DNA of 64,000 bases from Eledone cirrhosa (Eukaryota). Positions 4,763-60,540 of this stretch are shown here, in pieces (the stretch's first letter is position 1; each line of letters opens with the position of its first letter). The notes under the pieces are model-generated. The model was given only the letters and a program-made list of their open reading frames with translations. It made no database searches and was not told where the DNA came from. A program made the position numbers and the translations under genes. The DNA lies in the NCBI GenBank assembly GCA_964016885.1, contig OZ024740.1:403186001-403250000 (forward strand), read 5' to 3'.

Positions 4763-5242
4763 TTATTGTTCATTTAGCTTGGGTTTGAATTTATCAATAA
4801 AATTCTTTTCTTTGATTTTTCTCTTGATTTCACTTGGGCTGTGTAATTTGTAGAATGGGAATATTATAAATATTCCCTGACCACATGTTGCCAGGTGGCC
4901 GCTTAGGGGTATCTGACGGACATTTGGGTCTCTGATTTGTTGACGGTGTACCCGTGCACGTTCCGATAGTGCATTTCCAGTTTGACCGACATATAGTTCT
5001 TCACAATTCGGGCATTTAATGCAGTAAATTAGATTTCTGCTTTTGCAGTTCATATTTGCATTTGTGAATATTTTTCCAGTTTTTGTTTTCATATATTGAC
5101 CGGCGTGTATGGATTGACATGTGCCGCATCGATTATCATTGCATTTAGATACAGTGAATGATTGGTCTTTGTTGTTACGGTCAAACTTTGCTTTTGTTAG
5201 TAATTGCTTCAAATTTTTTGGCTGTCTTTTACTAAGAGTCAA
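4763..5242 (-). pseudogene. C-terminal GIY-YIG endonuclease of a 5'-truncated Penelope-like element (Neptune-type)
   Basis: KCNDNRCGTC linker finger, NLIYCIKCPNC..LYVGQTG, R..HR, C-terminal PKLN; no RT upstream, (TA)n at the truncation. Confidence 0.9.
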
Positions 5243-5252
5243 AGATCGATCT

Positions 5253-5291
<39 letters not shown>

Positions 5292-5319
5292 TTTGCTTAA
5301 ACTTTAATCTGTTATTTTA

Positions 5320-7008: not shown

Positions 7009-7067
<59 letters not shown>

Positions 7068-7420
7068 CTGCTTCCCCCCTCTCTCTGTATCTCTCACCTT
7101 CTTTTACCCCTTCTGTCAGTCACACTCTCTCTCGAATGGCCTCTTCCTCACACTTCCACTCACTCACTCTCTGCTTCTGCCCCTCTCTCACTTACTCCCG
7201 TTTGACCTGTGTGAAATCCTTTTCTCGCTCACATCTCACCCATGTCGGATGGTCTGTATATCCCTCTCGCCTATGAATTCACCAAGCTTAAGCTTAATAG
7301 ATATCGTGGACTTGTTTCTTCCTATCTTTCCGTTGCAATACCATCTTTGTTTATTTACATGTCTTGCTCGCTTCACGCTACATTACTTGTCGCAATAGCT
7401 TTATTTAGCTATTGCTTGCA

Positions 7421-7490
7421 CCAACTATAGCTATATGATTTTTAAAGAGATGAAATACCTATGACGGTTAGAAAATAACTGATGAAGGAC
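7421..7490 (+). ncRNA. Non-circularly permuted hammerhead-like motif, diverged copy
   Basis: gcta-TA-TGATTTT..GAAA-TACC..AAAATAA-CTGATGA; homolog of 17763-17827; in (TA)n-flanked element ~7068-7548. Confidence 0.6.
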
Positions 7491-7721
7491 TTATTTTATT
7501 CATATGTAACCCATGTGCAACCACGCAGCACTCCATTCTTCTCATATTTATATATATATATATATATATATATTATTATGCTTTGGGAGGGTCATGTTGC
7601 CAATAACACACGCACCAGTTGCATTCACTCCAATTTATTATAAATTAAATTTATAAATTTAAGAATTCATAAATTTCCGGTTGGTTGTTTGGTTCCATAA
7701 CCGGACGGTTGTTCATATATT

Positions 7722-8552: not shown

Positions 8553-8646
8553 AGCATATCTGACGACCTTTCGATTACAGAGTCAGGTTCGATCTATACT
8601 ATGTCTTACCTCGAGCTGATCGATAGTGAAACATATGTAATATGTT
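8553..8646 (+). ncRNA. Type I hammerhead ribozyme with extended stem II
   Basis: AGCATAT-CTGACGA-[tcgat..atcga extended helix]-GAAA-CATATG-TA-ATATGTT; palindromic stem III. Confidence 0.85.
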
Positions 8647-8695
8647 ATTAAATATGTTATAATGCAACACTGAATCCTTGTTCCTTATCCTTATA

Positions 8696-8791
<96 letters not shown>

Positions 8792-16992: not shown

Positions 16993-17031
<39 letters not shown>

Positions 17032-17044
17032 TAAAGTTAGTCCT

Positions 17045-17109
17045 TCATCAGTGATCTTCCAACCTTCATTGGTATTTCATCGCTTTAAAGACCATATACC
17101 TCCGGTTGG
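17045..17109 (-). ncRNA. Non-circularly permuted hammerhead-like motif
   Basis: Minus strand: CCAACC-gga-GGTA-TA-TGGTCTT-taaagcgat-GAAA-TACC-aatgaa-GGTTGG-AAGATCA-CTGATGA. Confidence 0.75.
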
Positions 17110-17762
17110 TGCGAGCAGCGGCTAAAGAAAGTTGTTGGGACACGTAAATAAGGGGAACGAGCGAAACTGTAAACAATCAAAGATGGTAATGCAACGAAAA
17201 GTGAGGAAGAAAGAGTCAAGTCCCAGATTTCCATGATATAAGTTCGGTGAAATCGTGAACGAGAGAGAATAAAGACCATCAAACCTACTCGAAATGTGAG
17301 CAAGGAAGTGAGTGAGTGAGTGAAGGGTGAGGAAGAGGTTAACAGAGAGAGTGACTGTTAGAGAGGGTAAAGGGAGGTCTCACTCTCTGCTACTACCTCT
17401 CCTACTTCCTCCCATTTGACCTGTGCGTAATTCTTTTCTCGTGCACGCTTGACCAGGCTGGTTGTTCCTTTTTTATCTCTTGTCTACGATTTCACAGAAC
17501 TTATGTTCACCGAATTCAGGGACTAGACTCCTTCTTCCGCCCGTTTGACCTGTGCGGAATTCCTTCCTTGCTCACATTTCAACCAGGTTTGATGGTCTTT
17601 ATTCTCTCTCGTTCACGATTTCACCGAACTTATATTCATGGAAATCTGGGACTTGACTCTTTCTTCCTCACTTTTCGTTGCATTACCATCTTTGATTGTT
17701 TACAGTCTCGCTCGTTCCCCTTATTTACGTGTCCCAACAACTTTCTTTAGCCGTTACTCGCA

Positions 17763-17827
17763 CCAACCGGAGGTATATGGTCTTTAAAGAGATGAAATAC
17801 CAATGAAGGTTGGAAGATCACTGATGA
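17763..17827 (+). ncRNA. Non-circularly permuted hammerhead-like motif
   Basis: GGTA(17772-75)/TACC(17798-801) = stem III; AUA triplet; TGGTCTT(17778-84)/AAGATCA(17814-20) = stem I; GAAA 17794-97; CTGATGA 17821-27. Confidence 0.78.
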
Positions 17828-17886
17828 AGGACTAACTTTATTCATATGTAACCAATTTTCAACCACGCAGCACGTTTGTTTTCATA

Positions 17887-17926
<40 letters not shown>

Positions 17927-17997: not shown

Positions 17998-18309
17998 GAT
18001 AGAATGGAAAACGAAAAATCAGTGATGCATCGGAACTCAATTTATTGCGTATTGCAATTGTTTGAACGGCGAACAGCTTGAGGTGAGATCTGTGTGTCGA
18101 TCTACCTGACTCTGGATTCACAGGCTCCTCGGATACGTCTATTGATTTCGGAGCAGATCCTCATTCTAAATCAATAGACGTATCTGAGGGACCTGTGAAT
18201 CCAGAGTCAGGTCGATCCACACACAGATCGCACCTCGAGCTGTTCGCCGGGGAAACAATTGTAACACACAATAAATTGAGTTCTGATGTATCACTGATTT
18301 TTCGTTTTC

Positions 18310-18316
<7 letters not shown>
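17998..18316. mobile_element. Palindromic element with two decayed hammerheads related to 8553-8646
   Basis: ~150-bp inverted arms; arm consensus CGTAT-CTGAGGA..GAAA-CAATTG-TA-ATACG, each arm with different core mutations. Confidence 0.7.
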
Positions 18317-18396
<80 letters not shown>

Positions 18397-23687: not shown

Positions 23688-23720
23688 TCTCTTTTCCTCT
23701 TTTAACTTTTCAGTACCAAC

Positions 23721-26700
23721 ATGGCCAATATAAGAGTTGGATGTGTGAACGTACGCGGCCTGGGGATGCCCTGGAAACAGGGCAAACTCTTAAACGACCT
23801 CAGGTCGCACAGTATGGATGTGGTAGCCATTTGCGAGTCCAGGATCCACAGCGAGCGACAGCTGGCTCCCATCTTCGATGACTTTGAGATCTACGCATCT
23901 CTCTGTCAACCGGGGGGTGGGGGAGGAGTTGCCGTTTTGCTGCAGAAACACCTGGGCCTCGTAACGCAGACGGTACATCTGGACCCGGAGGGTCGACTGG
24001 TGGTCCTAGACGTTGACGGTAGTGAAGGTGGAGCCTTCAGGCTGGTGGCCGCATATGCCCCATCCGGGACACCGCGGCCAGACTTCTTCAAACGTCTAGA
24101 GACTTTTCTGGGAACGTCCCGCTCCTTGCTTTTAGTGGGGGACTGGAATGGAATCCTAGATGCACGTTGGGACTATGTGGGAGCATGTCCCGATAAAGGG
24201 GGGGGGTGTAACAGCCTCAAACAGTTAATCGACCGATTTGACCTGGCCGATAGATATCGACTAGATTTTCCGACTGCGCCACTGTGGACGTGGAGTAATC
24301 GTAGCGGAACATCTAGATCGTACCTAGATAGGGTTCTAGTTAGAAATAAGGATAGGGACATATTAAGCTGTCCACAAATGTTCATGGTTGCCTATTCAGA
24401 TCACAAACTAGCGACCTGCATGGCCAACCTTGATAGAACCCATAGACAAGGACCCGGCTACTGGAAGCTGAACTTGTCGTTACCGACAAGCAAAGCCTAC
24501 AGTAGACGGATTAGCACTTTAGTTAAGGAGAACTTGACAGGGGCCATTGTCAACAACAGATGGTGGTACTCTCTGAAGAGGGCAGTTAAATTAGACTCGA
24601 TAGTTTTTAGTAAAGAATTAGCGTTAGATAGAAATAGAACCGAGAAGGAACTGGTAGATAAAGTAGAAGAGGCAATGAGAAGTGGCAACGTAGCCAGCGT
24701 GCTAGCAACGAGAACGGCCTTGGGCCAGTTCTTCGACGCAAAGCACGAGGGCTGCGTTGTCAGAAGCAAAATACGTGCTCTGGGAAACGAGGGAGCCAAA
24801 GCTGTTAGCTGGGCCCGAGTGACGGAGGCAAAAAGTGGGAACAAGTCGACGATTCGGTCTTTGAAGGACCAAAACGGACGCGTGATACGTGAGCCGAAGC
24901 AGATGTGTGCGGCTTTTCGGCGGCACTTTTCTCAGCTGTTCGGGGGGGAGAGGCTATGGATTTCGGTCCATACCTCGACGGCCTACCGCGACTCTCGGAC
25001 AGCGAGGCAAAGTTCTGCGAAAAGCCGATTTCAGCCACTGAGATAGGGGACGCGCTGAGCCAATGCGGCAAACGTAAAACTCCAGGTCTCGACGGTCTAC
25101 CCTACGAATTTTACGTAGCAATGCCGGACTTATTCTCCGGTCTCCTGGAAGCGGTCTACTGCAACTGGCCAGTTCTGTAACCGGGGGCGTGGTCACACTA
25201 ATCAGGAAGGACGAGAATAAGGGGGATGACATAGGCAACTTCCGGCCCATAACTCTGCTAAACACAGAGTTACAGATTTTGGCCAAGGTGTTGGCAAAGA
25301 GGCTGGCGCTTGTCGTCGAGAACCTGGTTGGAGAAGCGCAGACATGCGCAATCCCGACCAGGTCCATACACGACAACCTCCACCTCATGCGATACATCAT
25401 AGAGAGGGTAGGGTGTAAACCCGGCTTTAGTGGGGCCCTGATCAACTTGGATCAGTCTAAGGCTTTCGATAGGGTTGACCATCGTTACCTGGATGCGGTG
25501 CTCGAGGCGGCAGGCTTCGGACCCGTGTCAGGGGCTGGATTGCTGCAATGCACAACAGCAACATCTGCTCAAGGGTCAAGGTGAACGGCTACCTCTCGGA
25601 ACGTTCCATATTACGCGATCCATTCGACAGGGATGCCCTCTCTCCTCCCTTCTGTACGTACTGACTCTCAAGCCACTACTGCGGAAGCTGGAGCTATTGC
25701 AGGGCATCCCTCTGGAACCGGGACTGCGGAAAGCGGTGTCGGCCTACGCCGACGACGTGACAGTAATGGTGTCGAGCGCCTCGCAAATCGAGGAAGTCGG
25801 CACCTTACTGAAGGAATACGAAAGTCTCACAGGAGTGAAGCTGAACCGGGGCAAGTCCATCGGTTTGCAACTCGGATCGTGGAGAGGCAAACCGATGCCT
25901 TCCGATGGCGTCGTCGGACGCTGGACGGAAGGACCGGTAAAGCTGCTCGAGGTCTGGTTTTGTCCGGACCTCCAGGTGGAGAAGAACTGGAACGAAGTGA
26001 CGGCCAAGGTGTTTGCACTCACCCAGAAGTGGGCGGAGTGCAAACTATCCTTGAAAGATCGAGCGGAGGTGGCGAACACTTTTATAGCGTCCGCCATCTA
26101 CTACCGCTTGACCGTCGTGCTTTGTCTAGCCAAAACGCTCGCCAAAATTGAGCGCGCGCTCTTCCAATTCCTTTGGAAGAGGCGGGCTACTTTGGTGAGA
26201 AGATCCATCTGCTGCCAACACCCTTCTAACGGAGGGCTGGGGATGCCGTGGTTGACGATGCGCAAACACGCGCTGAGGCTGCGGCATCTCTACGTATTCC
26301 TCACCGGACAACTGGTGTGGGCCCCGTTCGTGAGGCGAGCCTTCCCACGACTCGTCTCGCTGACCGAGCTGCAGTCCTGGGTCAAGCAAAGACCGAGGAA
26401 AATGGGCGACTGGCACATCGAATGTGCTCAGGCGCTCACAGCCCTCTGGCAGGGGGACCCGGCGATCAGTGGAGGCTCCACTTCGTCATTCTATAGAAGG
26501 TTGGTCCGCAGCAAGTGCGACGACGCGCTCGGTGAAACTCTAGGCGTAGAGGAAGATGAACTGGCCAGTCTGTTCGGTAGGACTTTCCGCCCGGGACCGA
26601 TGGACAACTTCCAAAAGTGCCTGGCCTGGCAGTGCTACCGAGGAGCTCTACCAGTTCGAGACAATCTCTACAGACATGGGCGCCCGGGCAGGGACCCTGC

Positions 26701-27127
26701 AAAAAAGATCTGTCCGAGGTGCGTGCGAGACGAAGAAACCGTCGCGCACACATTCATACAGTGCCCGGGCGTCACTGACCTGTGAGGCTATGTAGAACGA
26801 CTATTGTGGCGGGTGGGACCAATCCGGTTGACCACCGAGTCCATTGTCATGATCAAACCGCCACCCTCCTTCAAAAACGAAGGAGAGGCGGTTTTCCTTT
26901 GTGTGATAGCTATGGCGAAAGAGGTTGTATGGTGGACAAGGTTGAAAGGGCTGAGGTCAGACACCTTTCTCTCCGGCCAACAACTGATTCTTTTTTTCAA
27001 ATACCACTTTGGAAGAAGAATCAGGATGGAGAGAGAGGTGCTGTACCCCAGCAAGTTTTATGAAAGGTGGGTGAAAGTGGCGAGAATGGCCCGAGTGAAT
27101 GGGCCTTCTCTCTATATCAGCCTGTAG
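23721..27127 (+). pseudogene. Tx1 family A ORF2: APE endonuclease, reverse transcriptase, C-terminal Cys motif
   Basis: NVRGL, GDWN, SYLDR, SDH, GPGYWKLN, FRPITLLN, KAFDRV, RQGCPLS, AYADD, CPRC..ETVAH..C; frameshifts, a deletion near 25170 and a stop at 26785. Confidence 0.95.
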
Positions 27128-27443
27128 GTTGAGGAAAAGGGGGAGGAGAGGAAGGGAGTACAAACTCTTCGTACTCCTGGAGATGAGGGTTGCACATTTT
27201 TTCGGGGGTATGTGTTACCCATATAAACTGTCTCCCTCTATTGGGGAAAATCGACTAACTTTTTAAATTGCATTTGTGATAACATTTTACACGTTTTTAT
27301 TGTATGTAAACTTCCCCCTTTGTATTTGTCCCCTTGTTTTGTGCCCCTGTGGCTAATAAAGAAATATATCTATCTATCTATCTATCTCACCCTCTCCTTC
27401 TCTCTCTCACTCACTCACGCTCTCACTCTCACTCTCTCTCTCT

Positions 27444-37872: not shown

Positions 37873-39085
37873 ATTCCAAACCTGGAAGCAGGGACTAGAG
37901 AGAAAGGGCCTCAAAGTCAACATGACAAAGACTAAGGTCCTTATAAGTAGACGAGAAAACAGAACCCAGATCCCCTCAGGGAAATGGCCTTGCTCAGTAT
38001 GTAGGAAAGGTGTAGGTAGGAACTCCATTCTTTGCCCCAAATGCAAACAATGGGTACACAAGAGATGTAGCGGGATCTCAGGAAGCTTAATTAAGAATGT
38101 AGGATTCACATGCAGCAGCTGTGCTGAAACAGCAAGCAAACAGCCACAGGAAACAAGTACCACCAATCTCTGGGAGGGCCCTGTAGAAACAGTAGACAGC
38201 TTCTGCTACCTAGGTGACCGAATTAGCAACGGAGGTGGGTGCTCAGAAAGTACAATAACTAGGGTAAGAACGGGATGGAAGAAGTTTAGGGAACTACTAC
38301 CACTGCTAGCTGCAAAAGGCTTCTCCCTCAGAATGAAAGGCAGACTGTATGATGCGTGTATCCGAACAGCGATGTTGCATGGTAGTGAGACCTGGGCGCT
38401 GAAGGTGGAAGACTTACGTAGATTAGAGAGAAACGAAGCCTGCATGCTCCGATGGATGTGTAACAGTAATATACGTGAACGACAAAGCATAAATGAATTG
38501 AGAGAGAGACTGAGCATAAGAGGAATCAAATGCTGCGTGCAGGAGAGGCGGTTACGCTGGTATGGACATGTGATGCGTATGAAGGATGACAGCTGCATAA
38601 AAAGGTGCAGAGCACTAGAAGTTGATGGAAACCGCGGAGTGGGGAGACCCAAGATGACTTGGGATGAGGTGATAAAAGCCGACCTTACCCAACTACACCT
38701 CTCAAAGTCAATGACACACGACCGTGACTTCTGGCGTCACGCAGTAATACAGGGTACCCGACCTCCCATGGGTACATGCTGAAGCATATAAACAATATGC
38801 CCCCCCCCCCCCACCGCAAGGTGGTCGTGGAGGTGCCACGGCAAAAAAGCACCCAGCCCACACTGTAAAGTGGACGTGTAGGCGCCACGAAAAAGCACCC
38901 AGCACTCACTGTAAATGAGGTTGGTGTTAGGAAGGGCATCCAGCTGTAGAAATCAAGCCAGATCAGTTCCTGTATGAGCAAGGCATGGTCAGCCGACCAG
39001 ACACTGCCCACAACAGGACAACCCGTCTAACCCATGCTAGCGTGGAAGAACGGACGTAAAACGGTGATGATGATGATGATGATGA
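37873..39085 (+). mobile_element. 5'-truncated RTE-clade LINE with (GAT)n tail
   Basis: ORF 37922-38782: FCYLGD, MLHGSETW, RRLRWYGHVMR, GRPKMTW; 3'UTR ends in (GAT)n; inserted in (TA)n. Confidence 0.9.
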
Positions 39086-39134
39086 TATATATGTATATAT
39101 ATGTATATATATATGTATATATATATGTATATAT

Positions 39135-39283
<149 letters not shown>

Positions 39284-39401
39284 TAGACATAGAATATTCG
39301 AAAATATTCTGTATGTTTATAATAAACATTTTGAAGACCTAATCGCTATAGAATAGAATACGTCACGTATTACAATTAGATTCTCGATAAAAGCAAGGGA
39401 A

Positions 39402-39445
39402 GTAAGTCTACGCGTTTCATTCTTGTTAGAATTCATCAGGACTAC
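39402..39445 (-). ncRNA. Minimal hammerhead (also 39713-39756, 40024-40067, 40335-40378, 40646-40689)
   Basis: Reverse complement of 41055-41098. Confidence 0.92.
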
Positions 39446-41054
39446 ATATCCAGTGCTTTTATCGAGAATGACACAGCTAGAGACTTATAGAATACTTAGC
39501 TGTGTACAGGAACTGGTTTGAAAGAGCGGTTGCCGGTCCGGCAGAAATTAGAAATTGGAATAAATGCTCTGAAATAGCGATATATATGTGAATATAGACA
39601 TAGAATATTCGAAAATATTCTGTATGTTTATAATAAACATTTTGAAGACCTAATCGCTATAGAATAGAATACGTCACGTATTACAATTAGATTCTCGATA
39701 AAAGCAAGGGAAGTAAGTCTACGCGTTTCATTCTTGTTAGAATTCATCAGGACTACATATCCAGTGCTTTTATCGAGAATGACACAGCTAGAGACTTATA
39801 GAATACTTAGCTGTGTACAGGAACTGGTTTGAAAGAGCGGTTGCCGGTCCGGCAGAAATTAGAAATTGGAATAAATGCTCTGAAATAGCGATATATATGT
39901 GAATATAGACATAGAATATTCGAAAATATTCTGTATGTTTATAATAAACATTTTGAAGACCTAATCGCTATAGAATAGAATACGTCACGTATTACAATTA
40001 GATTCTCGATAAAAGCAAGGGAAGTAAGTCTACGCGTTTCATTCTTGTTAGAATTCATCAGGACTACATATCCAGTGCTTTTATCGAGAATGACACAGCT
40101 AGAGACTTATAGAATACTTAGCTGTGTACAGGAACTGGTTTGAAAGAGCGGTTGCCGGTCCGGCAGAAATTAGAAATTGGAATAAATGCTCTGAAATAGC
40201 GATATATATGTGAATATAGACATAGAATATTCGAAAATATTCTGTATGTTTATAATAAACATTTTGAAGACCTAATCGCTATAGAATAGAATACGTCACG
40301 TATTACAATTAGATTCTCGATAAAAGCAAGGGAAGTAAGTCTACGCGTTTCATTCTTGTTAGAATTCATCAGGACTACATATCCAGTGCTTTTATCGAGA
40401 ATGACACAGCTAGAGACTTATAGAATACTTAGCTGTGTACAGGAACTGGTTTGAAAGAGCGGTTGCCGGTCCGGCAGAAATTAGAAATTGGAATAAATGC
40501 TCTGAAATAGCGATATATATGTGAATATAGACATAGAATATTCGAAAATATTCTGTATGTTTATAATAAACATTTTGAAGACCTAATCGCTATAGAATAG
40601 AATACGTCACGTATTACAATTAGATTCTCGATGAAAGCAAGGGAAGTAAGTCTACGCGTTTCATTCTTGTTAGAATTCATCAGGACTACATATCCAGTGC
40701 TTTTATCGAGAATGACACAGCTAGAGACTTATAGAATACTTAGCTGTGTACAGGAACTGGTTTGAAAGAGCGGTTGCCGGTCCGGCAGAAATTAGAAATT
40801 GGAATAAATGCTCTGAAATAGCGATATATATGTGAATCTATAGCGATTAGGTCTTCAAAATGTTTATTATAAACATACAGAATATTTTCGAATATTCTAT
40901 GTCTATATTCACATATATATCGCTATTTCAGAGCATTTATTCCAATTTCTAATTTCTGCCGGACCGGCAACCGCTCTTTCAAACCAGTTCCTGTACACAG
41001 CTAAGTATTCTATAAGTCTCTAGCTGTGTCATTCTCGATAAAAGCACTGGATAT

Positions 41055-41098
41055 GTAGTCCTGATGAATTCTAACAAGAATGAAACGCGTAGACTTAC
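41055..41098 (+). ncRNA. Minimal type I hammerhead (also 41366-41409)
   Basis: GTAGTC-CTGATGA-ATTCtaacaaGAAT-GAAA-CGCG-TA-GACTTAC; palindromic stem III; 16-bp stem I extension attctcgataaaagca/tgcttttatcgagaat. Confidence 0.93.
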
Positions 41099-41578
41099 TT
41101 CCCTTGCTTTTATCGAGAATCTAATTGTAATACGTGACGTATTCTATTCTATAGCGATTAGGTCTTCAAAATGTTTATTATAAACATACAGAATATTTTC
41201 GAATATTCTATGTCTATATTCACATATATATCGCTATTTCAGAGCATTTATTCCAATTTCTAATTTCTGCCGGACCGGCAACCGCTCTTTCAAACCAGTT
41301 CCTGTACACAGCTAAGTATTCTATAAGTCTCTAGCTGTGTCATTCTCGATAAAAGCACTGGATATGTAGTCCTGATGAATTCTAACAAGAATGAAACGCG
41401 TAGACTTACTTCCCTTGCTTTTATCGAGAATCTAATTGTAATACGTGACGTATTCTATTCTATAGCGATTAGGTCTTCAAAATGTTTATTATAAACATAC
41501 AGAATATTTTCGAATATTCTATGTCTATATTCACATATATATCGCTATTTCAGAGCATTTATTCCAATTTATATATAT

Positions 41579-41615
<37 letters not shown>

Positions 41616-41626
41616 AATATATATAT

Positions 41627-41766
<140 letters not shown>

Positions 41767-47916: not shown

Positions 47917-48169
47917 ATAGATAGATAGATAGGTAGATAAATTTCTATTTATTTGCCACGAGGGCACAAAAGAAGGGGACATTTACACAGTGGGGGAGTT
48001 TACATAAATCGAGTAAAGAAAAAGGAATAACAATAATAATATAACAATAAAAAGTCCTCAAAAGGGAGGGGGCGTGTTGGGGATTGCACATACCCCCGAA
48101 AAGTGTGCAACTCTTTTCGCGGGAGAAGCCCAGAGAGGAGGCGCTCCCCCTTTCCTCTTCACTTCTTCA

Positions 48170-51100
48170 CCTACAGAACAATGTAGAGAGAAGGCTCATT
48201 TACACGGGCCATTCTCGCTTCTTTCACCCACCTTTCATAAAACTGTCTGGGGCCATACTCTCTCCATCCTGATCCTTCTTCCGAAGTGGTATCGGAAGAA
48301 GTAAACCAGGTGATGGCCGGAGAGAAAGTCACCCGACCTCAGACCTTTCAGGCGCGTCCACCACACAACCTCTTTCATCATGGCTATTACGCACAGAAAG
48401 ACCACCTCTGCTTCATTTCTGAAGGGAGGAGGTGGCTTGATGTTCACCACAGACTCGGCGGTTAATCGAATCGGCGCCACACGCGACAGCAGTCATTCGA
48501 CGTAGCCCCACAGATCGGCAACGCTCGGGCAGTGTACCAGTGCATGCGCAACGGTTTCCTCGTCGCGCACGCATCTGGGACAGATCTTTTTCGCGGGATC
48601 CCTGCCCGGGCGCCCGTGTCTGTAGAGCTTTTCTCGAACGGGCAGAGCCCCCCGGTAACACTGCCAGGCTAGGGACCTCTGGAAGTTGTCCATGGGTCCC
48701 GGGCCGAAAGTTCTACCGAACAGGCTGGCCAGTTCGTCGTCCTCCATGCCTAGCGACTCTCAAAGGGTGTCGTCGCCCTTGCTAGCCACCAACCATCTAT
48801 AGAATGTCGAGGTGGATTCTCCACTGATAGTCGGGTCCGCTTGCCAGATAGCCGTGAGCGCCTGGGCACACTCGGTGTGCCAGTTGCCCAGTTTTCTCGG
48901 TCTTTGCTTCACCCAGGATTGCAGTTCGGTGAGCGAGACGAGCTGTGGGAAGGCTCGCCTCACAAACGGGGCCCACACCGGCTGACCGTTGAGGAATACC
49001 TGTAGATGCCGTAGCCTCAATGCGTGCCTACGCATCAACAGCCACGGCATACCCAGCCCTCCTTTCGAAGGGTGCTGGCAGCAGATGGATCTCCTCACCA
49101 TGGGAGGCCGCTTCTTCCAGAGGAACTGGAAGAGCATGCGTTCCATGATGGTGAGCTTTTCCTTGGGGCAAGGCACGACGGTCAGGCGGTAGTAGATGAC
49201 GGACGCTATGTAAGCGTTCGTCACCTCCGCCCGACCTTTCAGTGATAGTTTGCACTTGGCCCACTTCTGGGTCAGCGCAAACACCCTGCTCGTCACCTCG
49301 CCCCAATTCTTCTCCACCTGGAGGTCCGGTCCGAACCAGACCCCGAGCAGCTTCACCGGGCCCTCCGTCCACCGCCCGACGACACCGTCTAACGGCATCG
49401 GTTTGCCCCTCCACGTTCCGAGTTGCAAACCGACTGACTTGTCCTGGTTCAGCCTAGCCCCCGTCAGCCTTTCGTATTCCTCCAGTAGGGTGGCGATCGC
49501 CCCGATTTCCGAGGCGTCCGCCACCATTACTGTTACGTCGTCGGCATAGGCCGAGACCGCTTTGTGCAATCCCGGTTCCAGGGGTATGCCCCGCAGCAAC
49601 TCCAACTTCCGCAGCAGTGGCTCGATAGTCAATACGTACAGAAGGGAGGAGAGGGGGCACCCCTGTCTGATGGAGCGGGTGATTTGAAACGGCTCCGAGA
49701 GGTAGCCGTTTACTTTAATCCTAGAGTAGATGTTGCCACTGTGCATGGCAGAAATCCAGCCCCTGAAAACGGGTCCGAAACCCGCCGCCGCTAGCACCGC
49801 ATCCAGGTAACCATGGTCGACCCTATCGAACGCCTTAGATTGATCCAAGTTGATCAGGGCCCCATCAAAGCCGGGTTCGTTGCCAACCCTCTCTACGATG
49901 TATCGCATGAGGTGGAGGTTGTCGTGAATGGACCTGGACGGGATAGCGCATGTCTGCGCGTCTCCCACCAAACCACCCACCACAAGCGCCAACCTCTTCG
50001 CCAACACCTTGGCCAAAATCTGTAACTCTGCATTTAGCAGAGTTATGGGCCTAAAGTTACTTAAGTCGTCCCCTTTGCTCTCGTCCTTCCTCACTAGCAT
50101 GACCACGCCCTTGGTCACAGAACAGGGAATTCTCCCGTTCTGTTGCCAGTTGCAATAGACAGCCTCGAGGAGTTCGGAGAACAAGACCGGCATAGCTAAA
50201 TAAAGTTCGTATGGTAGACCATCGAGACCCGGAGATTTGCGTCTGCTGCATTGGCTGAGCGCTTCCCCGATTTCAGTGGCTGTGATTGGCCTTTCACAGC
50301 ACTCCGCTTCGCCCCTCGAAAGACGCGGTAGACCGTCGAGGTATGGACCGAAGTCCACATCCCCGTCCGGCCCCCCGCCCCCTCCGAACAGTCGAACAAA
50401 GTGCCTTTGAAAGGCCTCGCACATCCGCTCAGGTTCAAGGATCACCCGTCCATCCTGGTCTCGCAAAGACCGAATGGTGGATTTAATCCCACTCTTGGCT
50501 TCTGTCACGCGGGCCCAGCTAACAGCTTTGGTCCCCTCGTTTCCTAAAGCACGTATTTTACTTCGGACAACGCAGCCTTCGTGCTTCGCGTCAAAGAACT
50601 GGCTCAACGCCGTTCTCGCCGCTAACACTCTGGCCACGTCTCCGCTCCTAATCGCCTCTTCTAGTTTATCTGTTAACTCCCTTTCCTTCCTATTTCTATT
50701 TGCCGCTAGTTCCTTACTGTAACCTATCGGACTTACTCTAATCTCTCTCTTTAGAGATACCCACCACCTGCTGTTGACGATCGCTCCCGTCAACCGCATC
50801 TTAACTAAGCTACTAATCCGGTTCCTGTAATCTTTCTTTGCCGGCAAGGACAAGTTCATCTTCCAGTAACCGGGACCCTGTCTATGCGTTCTATCAAGGT
50901 TGACCACGCAGGTCACTAATTTGTGATCTGAATAGCCAACCATGATCAGTTCTGGACAACTAAATACGTCCCTATCCTTACTCCTAACCAAAAACCTATC
51001 TAGGTACGATCTAGATTGTCCACTGCGGTTTGCCCAGGTCCAGGTTGGCGCAGTTGGACAATCTAGTCGAAATCTATCGACCAGGTCGAATCGATCGAGT

Positions 51101-51608
51101 AACCCCTTGAGGCTGCTACACCCCCCTCTATCGGGACATGCCCCTGCATAGTCCCAACGCGCATCTAGGATTCCATTCCAGTCCCCCACTAAAAGCAGGG
51201 AATGCGACGTTCCTAGAAAAGTCTCCAGACGCTGGAAGAAGTCGGCTCTTTCCGCCCCGAAGGGGGCATAAAGACCGACCAGTCTGAAAGCCCCGCCTTC
51301 ACCGCCTCCGACGTCCAGCACCAGTAATCGACCCCCCGGGTCCGAGTGAACAATCTGTACGTCGAGAGCCAGACGTTTATCCAGCAGTACGGCAACTCCC
51401 CCCCCCCCCCGCCTCCGGGTCGACAGAGAGATGCGTGCATCTCAAAGTCATCGAAGGCGGGCGCCAGCTGTCTCACGCTGCTGATCCGACTCTCGCAAAC
51501 AACCATCACATCTATACTTTGTGACCTGAGGTCATTTAGAAGCTTTGCTTGCTTCCAAGCTGAGCCCCGGCCACACGCGTTCAAACAGCCAACTCTCAAT
51601 TGATCTAT
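48170..51608 (-). pseudogene. Tx1 family B ORF2 (APE-RT-Cys motif)
   Basis: 853-aa open stretch 51321-48760 with RQGCPLS and AYADD; frameshift near poly-G 51398-51410; probable start ATG>ATA at 51608; stop at 48760. Confidence 0.95.
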
Positions 51609-53475
51609 TTTGGTGCTGAAAGTGAAGAAAGAAAAGCACCTACCTCTCCGGGTTGTGTAATTTCCATGGCATCAGGTGTGTTGGGTGGAGGGATGTTTTG
51701 TGGTGGTGTGGGGGTACCCGTGTGTGGTGGGGTTGGGGTATTTGGAGTTGTGTCAGGGAGAGGGGCGGTTATGGGGAAATCTTTCAAAAGGACGCGATTT
51801 AACGGTTTTAAACAGGGGGGGGGGCTCACGTCCCGTCTAAATTGTTCTTTTAAGGAACGATAAAGGTCCAGAGGGACCTTTATCATTTTTAAATGGGTGA
51901 AGTTCTCTGTTGAGATAAAGTTTGGCCCTTCGGTCTGCACCATAGGGTTATTGTTTATTAATTTAACCAGTTTTTTGTTTTCTTTATTTATATATGTGTA
52001 TTGCAACGTCTTTTTTTGTGATGCTGTCAATGTTTCGGAGAGGGGAGGCGCAGATTTATTTTTGTTTGTTGAGGGTGGGGTGTTTTTGATTGGAGTTGGT
52101 GTTTGTGTGGGGGTTATTTGTGGTGTGCTGGGTGTGTGTTTTCTTTTTTTTCTTTTAACTTGTCTGAAGGCTTCTCCTCCTTCTTCTTCAGAAGTTGGGG
52201 GGAAACTCTTCAGCGCTAGGTGGGAGGGACGTGTTGTGTGGTTGTTTTTTTTTGCGGGAGGGGTAGATTTGTTACTGTTTTTTTATTATTTGTTTGGAAT
52301 GGGTTTTGTGGTGGTGGTGGTGGTGGTGGTAATGTTTGTGTCGTGCTTGTGGTTGGTGATGGTGGTGGTGATGTTTGTGTTGTGGTTGGTGGTGGTGATT
52401 TTTGTGTCGTGCTTGTGTTTGGTGCTGGTGGTGGTGATGTTTGTGTTGTGTTTGTGGTTGGTGGTGTCTGTATTTTGTTTGCTGTGTGTGGTATTAGTGT
52501 ATTTTTGGAGGTGGGTGGTGTTGGTGTACTGTTTGTGGTGGGTGTGGGCAATAGTCCTTTTTGGGGGATACGTTTCGGGCAGTTAGCCTTAACGTGTCCC
52601 CTTTCCATGCATAAATAGCATGCTGGTCTTCTCCCCTCTACAATTATATCTATTGGGGTAAGGTCATCCAGCCAGATGCGATCCGGGATTTGTGCTATTC
52701 TTTCGGGCCTCATTTGGACTAGTATGTCGAGGCCCATTCCCAGGAACGCATCTCCAGTTGCCTTCCCCATTGACAGCATTGTGTCTTCGCCCATGTCTAT
52801 GAAGCCAGCAATAGCCCACCAGAAGTCCATTGTGGGCAGCATTGTTTTTACTTTTACTCTCTGTGTTCTTCTACCCATGTAGGAGGGATAGAAGCTGTAT
52901 GTTGTCGATGAGAGTGGGCTTAGGGAAAGCTTCTCCGCCGTTTCCTTGTCTTTTGTTAAGACCGAAATGCTGCCATAGAGTCGGTCCTTTCGTATGAAGA
53001 GAATATTCTTCATATAGTTTTTTAGGACCAACTCTATTTCCATTTGGCTGGGCTGTGCTGGCTTTCTTGTTTGGTTCAGTATAGTTCTGAAGAGAACTGT
53101 GCTCTCTGTTCTGGCTTTCTTGAATTCTGGGGGGGAGTTAATGGAAAACATTCCGTTCTCCCCCAAGACTATTTGTTTTTTCGCTTCGGCCAGTTTTTCT
53201 CTGGCGGCAGTTAAGTCAATTGGTGTGTATGTTATGGATTGTTTTGTTTTCTGGGCGAAAGTTGCCCTGTTGTTATTTGTATTATTTTCTGTTTGTTTGT
53301 TTTCCGTTTGCTCATTTTCATTAACATTTGTTTTTTCATTTTCCTTGTTTGTTTCGTTGTCTAATTTTGTTGTAATTATTTTTTGTTCTTCAGACTTGGG
53401 GGGCGTGGCAGAGCTAATGGCAGACATGTCTGCCATCTTTTCCGCCATGCTGCCAAGAAAGAAATTTTTCGGCAA
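51605..53475 (-). pseudogene. Tx1 family B ORF1 (frameshifted)
   Basis: CYLCMERGHVKANC knuckle; FSINSP and KPLNRVLLK blocks shared with family A. Confidence 0.88.
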
Positions 53476-53700
53476 AAAAATAGATATTTATTTTACCCCC
53501 TAAAAAGGGGGTAAATGCAAAAATGTTTCCCTAAATAACAGGGGTTAGTGTTCCAAATGTGTTGCACTGAAAAATTTATCCGGTACTTACTATAGTAAGG
53601 GTAAATCCCGATGGAATAGCGGAGCCGATTTGAAGCGTGTCTTACTCTATCAAGATAGATTGATAGATAGATAGATATAGATATAGATATAGATATAGAT

Positions 53701-60098: not shown

Positions 60099-60133
<35 letters not shown>

Positions 60134-60361
60134 TTTTTTTTCCCCCCCGTTAGACCTGTGCGAAATTCTTTCCTTGCTCACATTTCAACCAGGTTTGATG
60201 GTCTTTTGTCTCTTGTTCACGATTTCACCGAGTTTATATTCATAGAGATCTGGGACTTGTCTATTTCTTCTCACTTTCCGTTGCTTAAACCTTTTTTGTT
60301 TGTTACCCTGGCGTCCCCTTTGTTTACGTGTCCCAACGACTTTTTTTAACCGTTGTTCGCA

Positions 60362-60426
60362 CCAACCTGAGGCATATGGCCCTTAAAGCGATGAAATGCC
60401 TGGGACGGTTGGAGGGTCACTGATGC
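60362..60426 (+). ncRNA. Non-circularly permuted hammerhead-like motif, diverged subfamily
   Basis: CCAACC-tga-GGCA-TA-TGGCCCT-taaagcgat-GAAA-TGCC-tgggac-GGTTGG-AGGGTCA-CTGATGC; compensatory changes relative to 17763; A9>C. Confidence 0.7.
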
Positions 60427-60479
60427 AGGACTTACTTTTTCATATGCCCCACCATTTGCAACGCGCAGCCATCATTATT

Positions 60480-60540
<61 letters not shown>

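Follow-up and report, generated by a model that had tools for sequence, protein, structure and literature searches.

Hammerhead ribozymes can be divided into three blocks, S (the cleavage site), G (GAAA) and C (a stem I strand, CUGAnGA and a stem II strand in a row), and natural ribozymes with the block orders SGC, CSG and, weakly, GCS have been found to cleave (Eckert et al. 2023, PMC10085705). The six permutations considered in that work presuppose that CUGAnGA cannot be parted from the stem strands on either side of it. Its type SGC alignment shows a U inserted just 3' of CUGAUGA and an interaction helix that comes one purine behind stem II; type CSG is represented by two sequences. Hammerheads "containing additional helices" are mentioned elsewhere (PMC13725137). 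In the parts of the literature covered here, including PMC3088659, PMC13725137, PMC10162972 and bioRxiv 10.64898/2026.09.16.752053 (subscription papers and preprint supplements lie outside this scope), we found neither a hammerhead split between A9 and stem II nor a description of permuted hammerheads in Naiads. The insertions of Penelope elements are marked by partial tandems, inverted 5'-truncated copies, a tail at one end, and microsatellite or (TA)n targets, and Naiads, 54 of which appear in the accompanying sheet, were reported to be without canonical hammerheads, eight of them being flagged "HHR_half_core" (Craig et al. 2021, PMC8557442).

The DNA analyzed here, referred to as the window, is a 64,000-nucleotide stretch of the Eledone cirrhosa genome (contig OZ024740.1) in which (TA)n tracts and animal retroelements abound. 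A preliminary description of the window had placed four copies of a ribozyme-bearing repeat in it, and all four were recovered where expected, as matches at 17521-17900 (+), 17022-17308 (-), 60143-60499 (+) and 7191-7560 (+). The Penelope-like architecture proposed for the host element was also borne out: a partial tandem, an inverted 5'-truncated copy, a tail at one end and a (TA)n target are all seen. The inverted tail-less copy adjoins the direct copy with its 47-nt tail, and a 319-nt self-complementary element (17999-18317), related to 8557-8773, adjoins the insertion. The copies are as follows.

17379..17897, + strand: 5'-truncated direct copy of a 641-nt tandem monomer, 95% to monomer positions 243-641 and 1-120
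17851-17897, + strand: 47-nt tail closing the direct copy, followed by (TA)n
17022-17308, - strand: inverted 5'-truncated copy without a tail; predicted ribozyme 17037-17145, H17 at 17095
17307-17378, - strand: short inverted piece beside the inverted copy, recognized by monomer comparison (17022..17378 together with that copy)
60111..60500, + strand: subfamily B copy; predicted ribozyme 60326-60434, helices intact, core A9 changed to C
7066..7553, + strand: subfamily C copy; predicted ribozyme 7385-7493, decayed

The strand order originally noted, in which the cleavage site is followed by GAAA and then by CUGAUGA so that stem I must form as a pseudoknot, was upheld, and the precedent invoked for such non-circular permutation proved to be type SGC (Eckert et al. 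2023, PMC10085705). The prediction of a cut after 17777 was likewise sustained, H17 mapping to that position. Other parts of the first model needed revision. The predicted RNA begins about 32 nt further 5', at 17731; the partner strand of stem II lies 5' of the cut site (17758-61/17789-92), and two further helices, stems IV and V, had been overlooked, so that the construct then suggested (17755-17850) leaves both of them out. The helix taken to extend stem III does exist, with 6/6 pairs present and 5/6 changed on both sides, and it sits instead where the stem I-II interaction helix of Eckert et al. is found. The anatomy of the six-helix model on the direct copy is given below.

17731..17832, + strand: whole predicted split-core hammerhead
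17731..17734, + strand: stem IV 5' strand, partner 17829-17832; 130-136 of 140 copies paired per position
17735..17756, + strand: hairpin V, 7 bp in the model, 4/7 pairs kept in this copy; 4/7 with both-side changes
17758..17761, + strand: stem II 5' strand, 5' of the cut site, partner 17789-17792; 126-139 of 140 copies paired per position
17762, + strand: single purine spacer before the interaction helix
17763..17768, + strand: stem I-II interaction helix 5' strand, partner 17808-17813; 5/6 pairs with both-side changes
17772..17777, + strand: stem III 5' strand, with U16.1 at 17776 and H17 at 17777; predicted cut 3' of 17777
17778..17784, + strand: stem I 5' strand, partner 17814-17820 (pseudoknot); 4/7 pairs with both-side changes
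17789..17801, + strand: stem II 3' strand, position 11.1 (17793), GAAA (17794-17797) and stem III 3' strand
17814..17832, + strand: stem I 3' strand, CUGAUGA (17821-17827), base N (17828) and stem IV 3' strand

Read 5' to 3', the RNA thus presents a stem IV strand, hairpin V, a stem II strand, an interaction-helix strand, stem III and the cut site, and then stem I, the stem II partner, GAAA and the partners of stem III, the interaction helix and stem I, followed by CUGAUGA and the stem IV partner. Pair counts, alignment and descriptor all place stems I and III in register with the core, and both the position of the interaction helix and its purine spacer match helix "I" of the SGC alignment (PMC10085705). 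The core (CUGAnGA, GAAA and UH) is complete in the repeat family, the exception among the window copies being 60326+ with its A9 to C change. H17 is A, C or U depending on the subfamily (A 105, C 33, U 1 and G 1 among 140 copies, core letter counts in this set being biased because the copies were chosen by a core pattern). Counted on the model, the direct copy (17727+), the inverted copy (17037-17145) and 60326+ each have 7/7 pairs in stem I, 5/5 in stem III and 6/6 in the interaction helix; the decayed copy 7385+ has 6/7, 4/5 and 5/6. Three letters that break pairs, at 17739, 17756 and 17790, are private to 17727+, where they weaken hairpin V and stem II; most contigs carry pair-restoring letters at these positions.

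Two sets of copies were used to evaluate the model. Per-position pairing was counted in the 174 of 228 copies whose 5' part is in register (140 distinct), and two structural alignments were built from 18 and 17 hand-picked copies. Across the 18 main-family copies 93.6% of 594 cells are paired, 15 of 33 pairs are altered on both sides, and none of 500 shuffles, made without correction for relatedness, reaches the real pairing level; in slid controls 25-49% of cells are paired. The both-side changes fall in hairpin V (4), the interaction helix (5), stem III (2 of 5 pairs) and stem I (4 of 7), in agreement with the covariation initially claimed for stems I and III. Stems II and IV do not vary in the main family, where they show no both-side changes; they covary only across families. 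One position of hairpin V is paired in just 69 of 140 copies. Without prompting, RNAalifold recovered stem IV, hairpin V, the interaction helix and stem III. In RNAfold, z scores for five main-family copies were weak (-0.34 to -1.74) with competing folds present, and stem II appeared in one D copy and one copy of the unrelated family H described below.

A sequence-free descriptor requiring only stems I and III found the permuted order in 191 distinct cores from the window and 269 loci, and found none in the same sequences reversed or complemented. The full set of stem II, interaction helix, hairpin V and stem IV accompanied 110 of 196 cores, as compared with a mean of 12.1 and a maximum of 19 when the upstream part was shuffled. 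This strict test was failed by 86 of the 196, including both intact window copies. A looser test with stem II and the interaction helix was passed by 137/196 real and 60/196 shuffled cores, a high chance level. The conserved RNA structure is real. It behaves as a hammerhead in each sequence test apart from the stem II contiguity on which the classical and SGC definitions both depend.

Stem II is where the repeat departs from type SGC. The strand after CUGAUGA and the strand before GAAA are paired in 1, 0 and 7 of 140 copies at three successive positions, and a stem II joined directly to A9 and G12 was not found in the main family, which has at most one contiguous pair, and only 2 of the 191 descriptor cores have a contiguous stem II of at least 4 bp. 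Since the partner of stem II lies upstream and the bases after CUGAUGA belong to stem IV, the core is therefore opened at A9 in the model. The base immediately after CUGAUGA (N) pairs with position 11.1 in 128/140 copies (AU 92, UA 26, GU 7, GC 3), while the base preceding the upstream stem II strand does so in 2/140. Thus, stem II of the main family may begin with a pair contributed by the catalytic strand, through the base next to A9, and continue with pairs contributed by the leader strand. A viroid hammerhead tolerates an additional base behind A9. A U-U mismatch occurs at the base of helix II in an axolotl hammerhead (PMC7229834), and we found no report of a hammerhead tolerating a two-helix domain between A9 and 10.1. 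Several other pairings were considered and set aside. Reading through one tandem revealed no other G block elsewhere in the monomer that pairs with the strand after CUGAUGA, and two further pairings, one between the interaction strand and the 3' flank and one between the stem I strand and the sequence 3' of CUGAUGA, are lost in subfamily B, C, D or E.

Relaxed patterns extended the search to other families in the Eledone cirrhosa genome, giving 105 and 357 matches against 0 and 2 for the controls. Family H, with 1088 first-look candidates, is unrelated to the main family and has the identical layout with different letters in every helix. Its upstream stem II is 5 bp long with the canonical G10.1-C11.1 pair, its 5-bp stem IV directly follows A9, and its hairpin V has 11 bp; 93.0% of 661 cells are paired. 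When one copy was folded with RNAfold, stems IV, V and II formed, with a z score of -5.07. In the modeled structure of family H the core split is complete. Two single copies representing further families (L222 and L235) also have an upstream stem II when read by eye. An older, decayed family I (L190-L219, L238, L239) makes up most of the 100 matches listed of the 357; it shares the order of the core, stem IV and the interaction helix with the main family but apparently lacks hairpin V.

The host repeat is non-coding, tandem and Penelope-style, with units of 445-720 nt. The pattern linking GAAA to CUGAUGA has 10,860 exact matches in the 3.0-Gb genome, a lower bound on copy number, as compared with 0 for the reversed pattern, and DNA probes for four subfamilies gave 286, 925, 1582 and 1350 first-look candidates. 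Seven measured tandems have monomers of 521-652 nt with 42-44% GC, one predicted ribozyme each and no long ORF, the longest Met frame being 48-162 aa. Same-strand spacing is mostly 500-720 nt, 25 neighbor pairs are divergently inverted, and copies run into (TA)n at one of two distances past the core, about 12 nt or about 50-72 nt, some with and some without a tail. Subfamily monomers are 60-93% identical, and young copies of 97-98% identity are present. Among six monomers 60-86% identical, 56 of 104 columns are invariant in the ribozyme span, as compared with 120 of 324 outside. Within the monomer a segment of about 130-150 nt is duplicated (77% identity; 17399-17675 in the window), which explains much of the length difference between subfamilies.

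The window holds other elements as well. A tandem and inverted array of 311-nt units at 39085-41743, with seven small conventional type I hammerhead cores (stem III of 2-3 bp), is a classical non-LTR retrozyme. Further conventional type I candidates occur at 4386-, 7760-, 8881-, 18597-, 56627+ and 58738-, the first of these 3' of a GIY-YIG frame (4763-5296), and in several of these candidates CUGAnGA is followed by one additional base, or stem II opens with a U-U pair. Two opposite-strand LINE copies, 79% identical, lie at 23693-27387 and 47919-53487, with endonuclease and RT frames and an ORF1-like frame upstream.

Rfam gave no hammerhead among its three matches at E up to 10 for 17690-17870, nor among the matches listed (150 of 199) for the whole window. 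HH9 was matched weakly by one of the conventional hammerheads in the window. The lack of a hammerhead match at the repeat is expected because the form is permuted.

Comparison by eye with motif-chosen passages of File S5 of PMC8557442 suggests a possible source for the ribozyme. The split layout is present at the 3' ends of 10 published Naiad consensus sequences, three Acropora families included. Five of the ten, Naiad_Amil, Naiad_Aacu, Naiad_Anas, Naiad_Obim and Naiad_Ovul, take their names from the header after each; the five that are unlabelled stand, by file order, among records of ctenophores, hydrozoans, cubozoans to acanthocephalans, and ostracods. A further five ends, from nematode records by file order, have plain type CSG with an interaction helix, and one more passage was set aside as unreadable. 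The linker spacing and layout of the repeat ribozyme resemble those of Naiad_Obim and Naiad_Ovul. The passages covered from the Naiad paper contain no description of the split fold (PMC8557442), and the split ribozyme, as far as these sequences can be read, may be the one thought to be missing from Naiad retrotransposons.

In the octopus's own genome, searches with endonuclease, RT and family K probes did not find an intact Naiad ORF joined to the ribozyme, and a GIY-YIG plus RT ORF of Naiad type is absent from the monomers and from the long frames of the fetched loci. The single genome match to a Naiad endonuclease motif was judged to be chance. A Naiad RT motif gave 3 matches against 3 in the control, and two of them translate as decayed Naiad-like RT: these remnants, at G000:C1:98073780 (L278) and G000:C2:353769484 (L279), are 72% identical to each other, one has a DKA motif, and no ribozyme was recognized downstream of either. 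The family K search gave three genome matches, all without an ORF. With no ORF joined to the ribozyme, the Naiad link depends on the passages compared by eye. RT and GIY-YIG frames near nine loci were considered as an autonomous partner and rejected, as they belong to C-terminal-endonuclease elements set apart from the repeat by (TA)n; these elements carry conventional type I hammerheads. Because young copies exist, the present mobilizer may be another (TA)n-targeting element, for instance one of the C-terminal-endonuclease type.

Taken together, we assign a probability of roughly 0.7 to the reading that the repeat RNA is an active, non-circularly permuted split-core hammerhead, as modeled above. 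Another explanation is that the fold is hammerhead-like and either inactive or protein-dependent, retained because the retrotransposon machinery recognizes it. A split core without tested precedent and the 10.1/11.1 mismatch of the main family are consistent with it, as is the 2-bp stem I seen by eye in the first Naiad record of File S5 (PMC8557442). We nevertheless regard this as unlikely, since subfamilies 60-86% identical, and families with no relation to one another, all retain the catalytic letters and obey the H17 rule, features that binding would not obviously require.

The ribozyme could instead be of plain type SGC, with a stem II of one pair plus an internal loop and with leader helices that play an accessory part or come from a different fold. 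The preliminary description had left stem II unclear, with one A-U pair and possibly a further helix (17785-89/17836-40) beyond an internal loop. The N-11.1 pair occurs as four pair types in its 128 copies, two positions past the 3x3 loop pair in 136/140 and 120/140, and the further helix is kept in subfamilies A, B, C and E, with 5/5 pairs in 72 of 101 A and C copies and 4/5 in B and E. It is reduced to 2/5 pairs in 30 of 42 D copies. The three successive unpaired positions, the rarity of a contiguous stem II among the descriptor cores, the conservation or covariation of stems IV and V, and family H, which lacks such a pair and has a full upstream stem II, make this account improbable in our estimate. 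Finally, a C/D-box snoRNA-like or chance motif spread with the repeat is suggested by a weak Rfam snR66 match (17777-17821, E 0.073, 24.1 bits where the gathering score is 65) and is very hard to credit, as no D box lies inside the stem, subfamily D and family H have lost the C-box-like letters, control matches are 0, and six helices and an entire hammerhead core would go unexplained.

If the repeat RNA is indeed a split-core hammerhead, it would probably cleave itself 3' of 17777, yielding RNAs of unit length from tandem transcripts, and a Penelope-like element would probably copy these into (TA)n sites. Stems IV and V may stack end to end as a splint, with a nick flanked by A9 and the start of stem II. 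Such a splint would hold A9 beside the start of stem II so that the core could assemble as usual. The cut ends would presumably stay paired through stem IV, stem II, the interaction helix and stem III (about 19 bp), which would favor ligation into circles, and these could be copied by a Penelope-like RT as in the retrozyme model (PMC7229834; bioRxiv 10.64898/2026.07.22.740005). The ribozyme itself may have its origin in a Naiad 3' end. We also favor, with less assurance than cleavage itself, a broader joint reading: that this would be a seventh natural form of the hammerhead, opened between A9 and stem II and rejoined by a coaxial two-helix splint; that it would be the 3' ribozyme of many Naiads in animals as far apart as ctenophores, corals and octopuses, with type CSG taking its place in those of nematodes; and that it would drive more than 10,000 long retrozymes here.

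Cleavage by this RNA would break the stated assumption on which hammerhead permutations are possible and would mean that a non-covalent splint can stand in for a backbone link beside an active site. Non-circular permutations would go from rare metatranscriptome contigs to being among the commonest ribozymes of an animal genome, and descriptor searches would be overlooking whole classes of ribozymes and retrozymes. The Naiad link, if true, would explain both the reported want of canonical hammerheads in Naiads and their unexplained "half cores".

Among described ribozymes the closest is type SGC (HRIMA-1, SGC variant), with which the repeat shares the block order, the full core, a short linker between stem I and stem II, and an interaction helix that comes after a stem II strand and one purine and before a stem I strand (PMC10085705). 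In the repeat, the first strand of that helix lies 5' of the cut site. The repeat differs in that the 5' strand of stem II is upstream of the cut site and not after CUGAnGA, in that helices IV and V stand where SGC has one inserted U, and in that block C, an uninterrupted run in SGC, is not intact. The portion of the SGC alignment available consists of IMG/M contigs (PMC10085705), whereas the repeat is genomic and from an animal. Like non-LTR animal retrozymes, it forms non-coding tandem monomers with one hammerhead each (PMC7229834; bioRxiv 10.64898/2026.07.22.740005), with 42-44% GC, thousands of copies and co-occurring autonomous Penelope-like elements (Cervera and de la Pena 2020, PMC7229834). 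The retrozymes described there have type I hammerheads and are about 170-400 nt long, whereas the repeat has a permuted split ribozyme and is mostly 500-720 nt; they are defined by linear and circular monomer RNA, and the repeat is known here from its sequence. A Naiad has an ORF with an N-terminal GIY-YIG and a C-terminal RT, unlike the repeat, and the two have in common (TA)n targets, partial tandems, inverted 5'-truncated copies and a tail at one end (PMC8557442).
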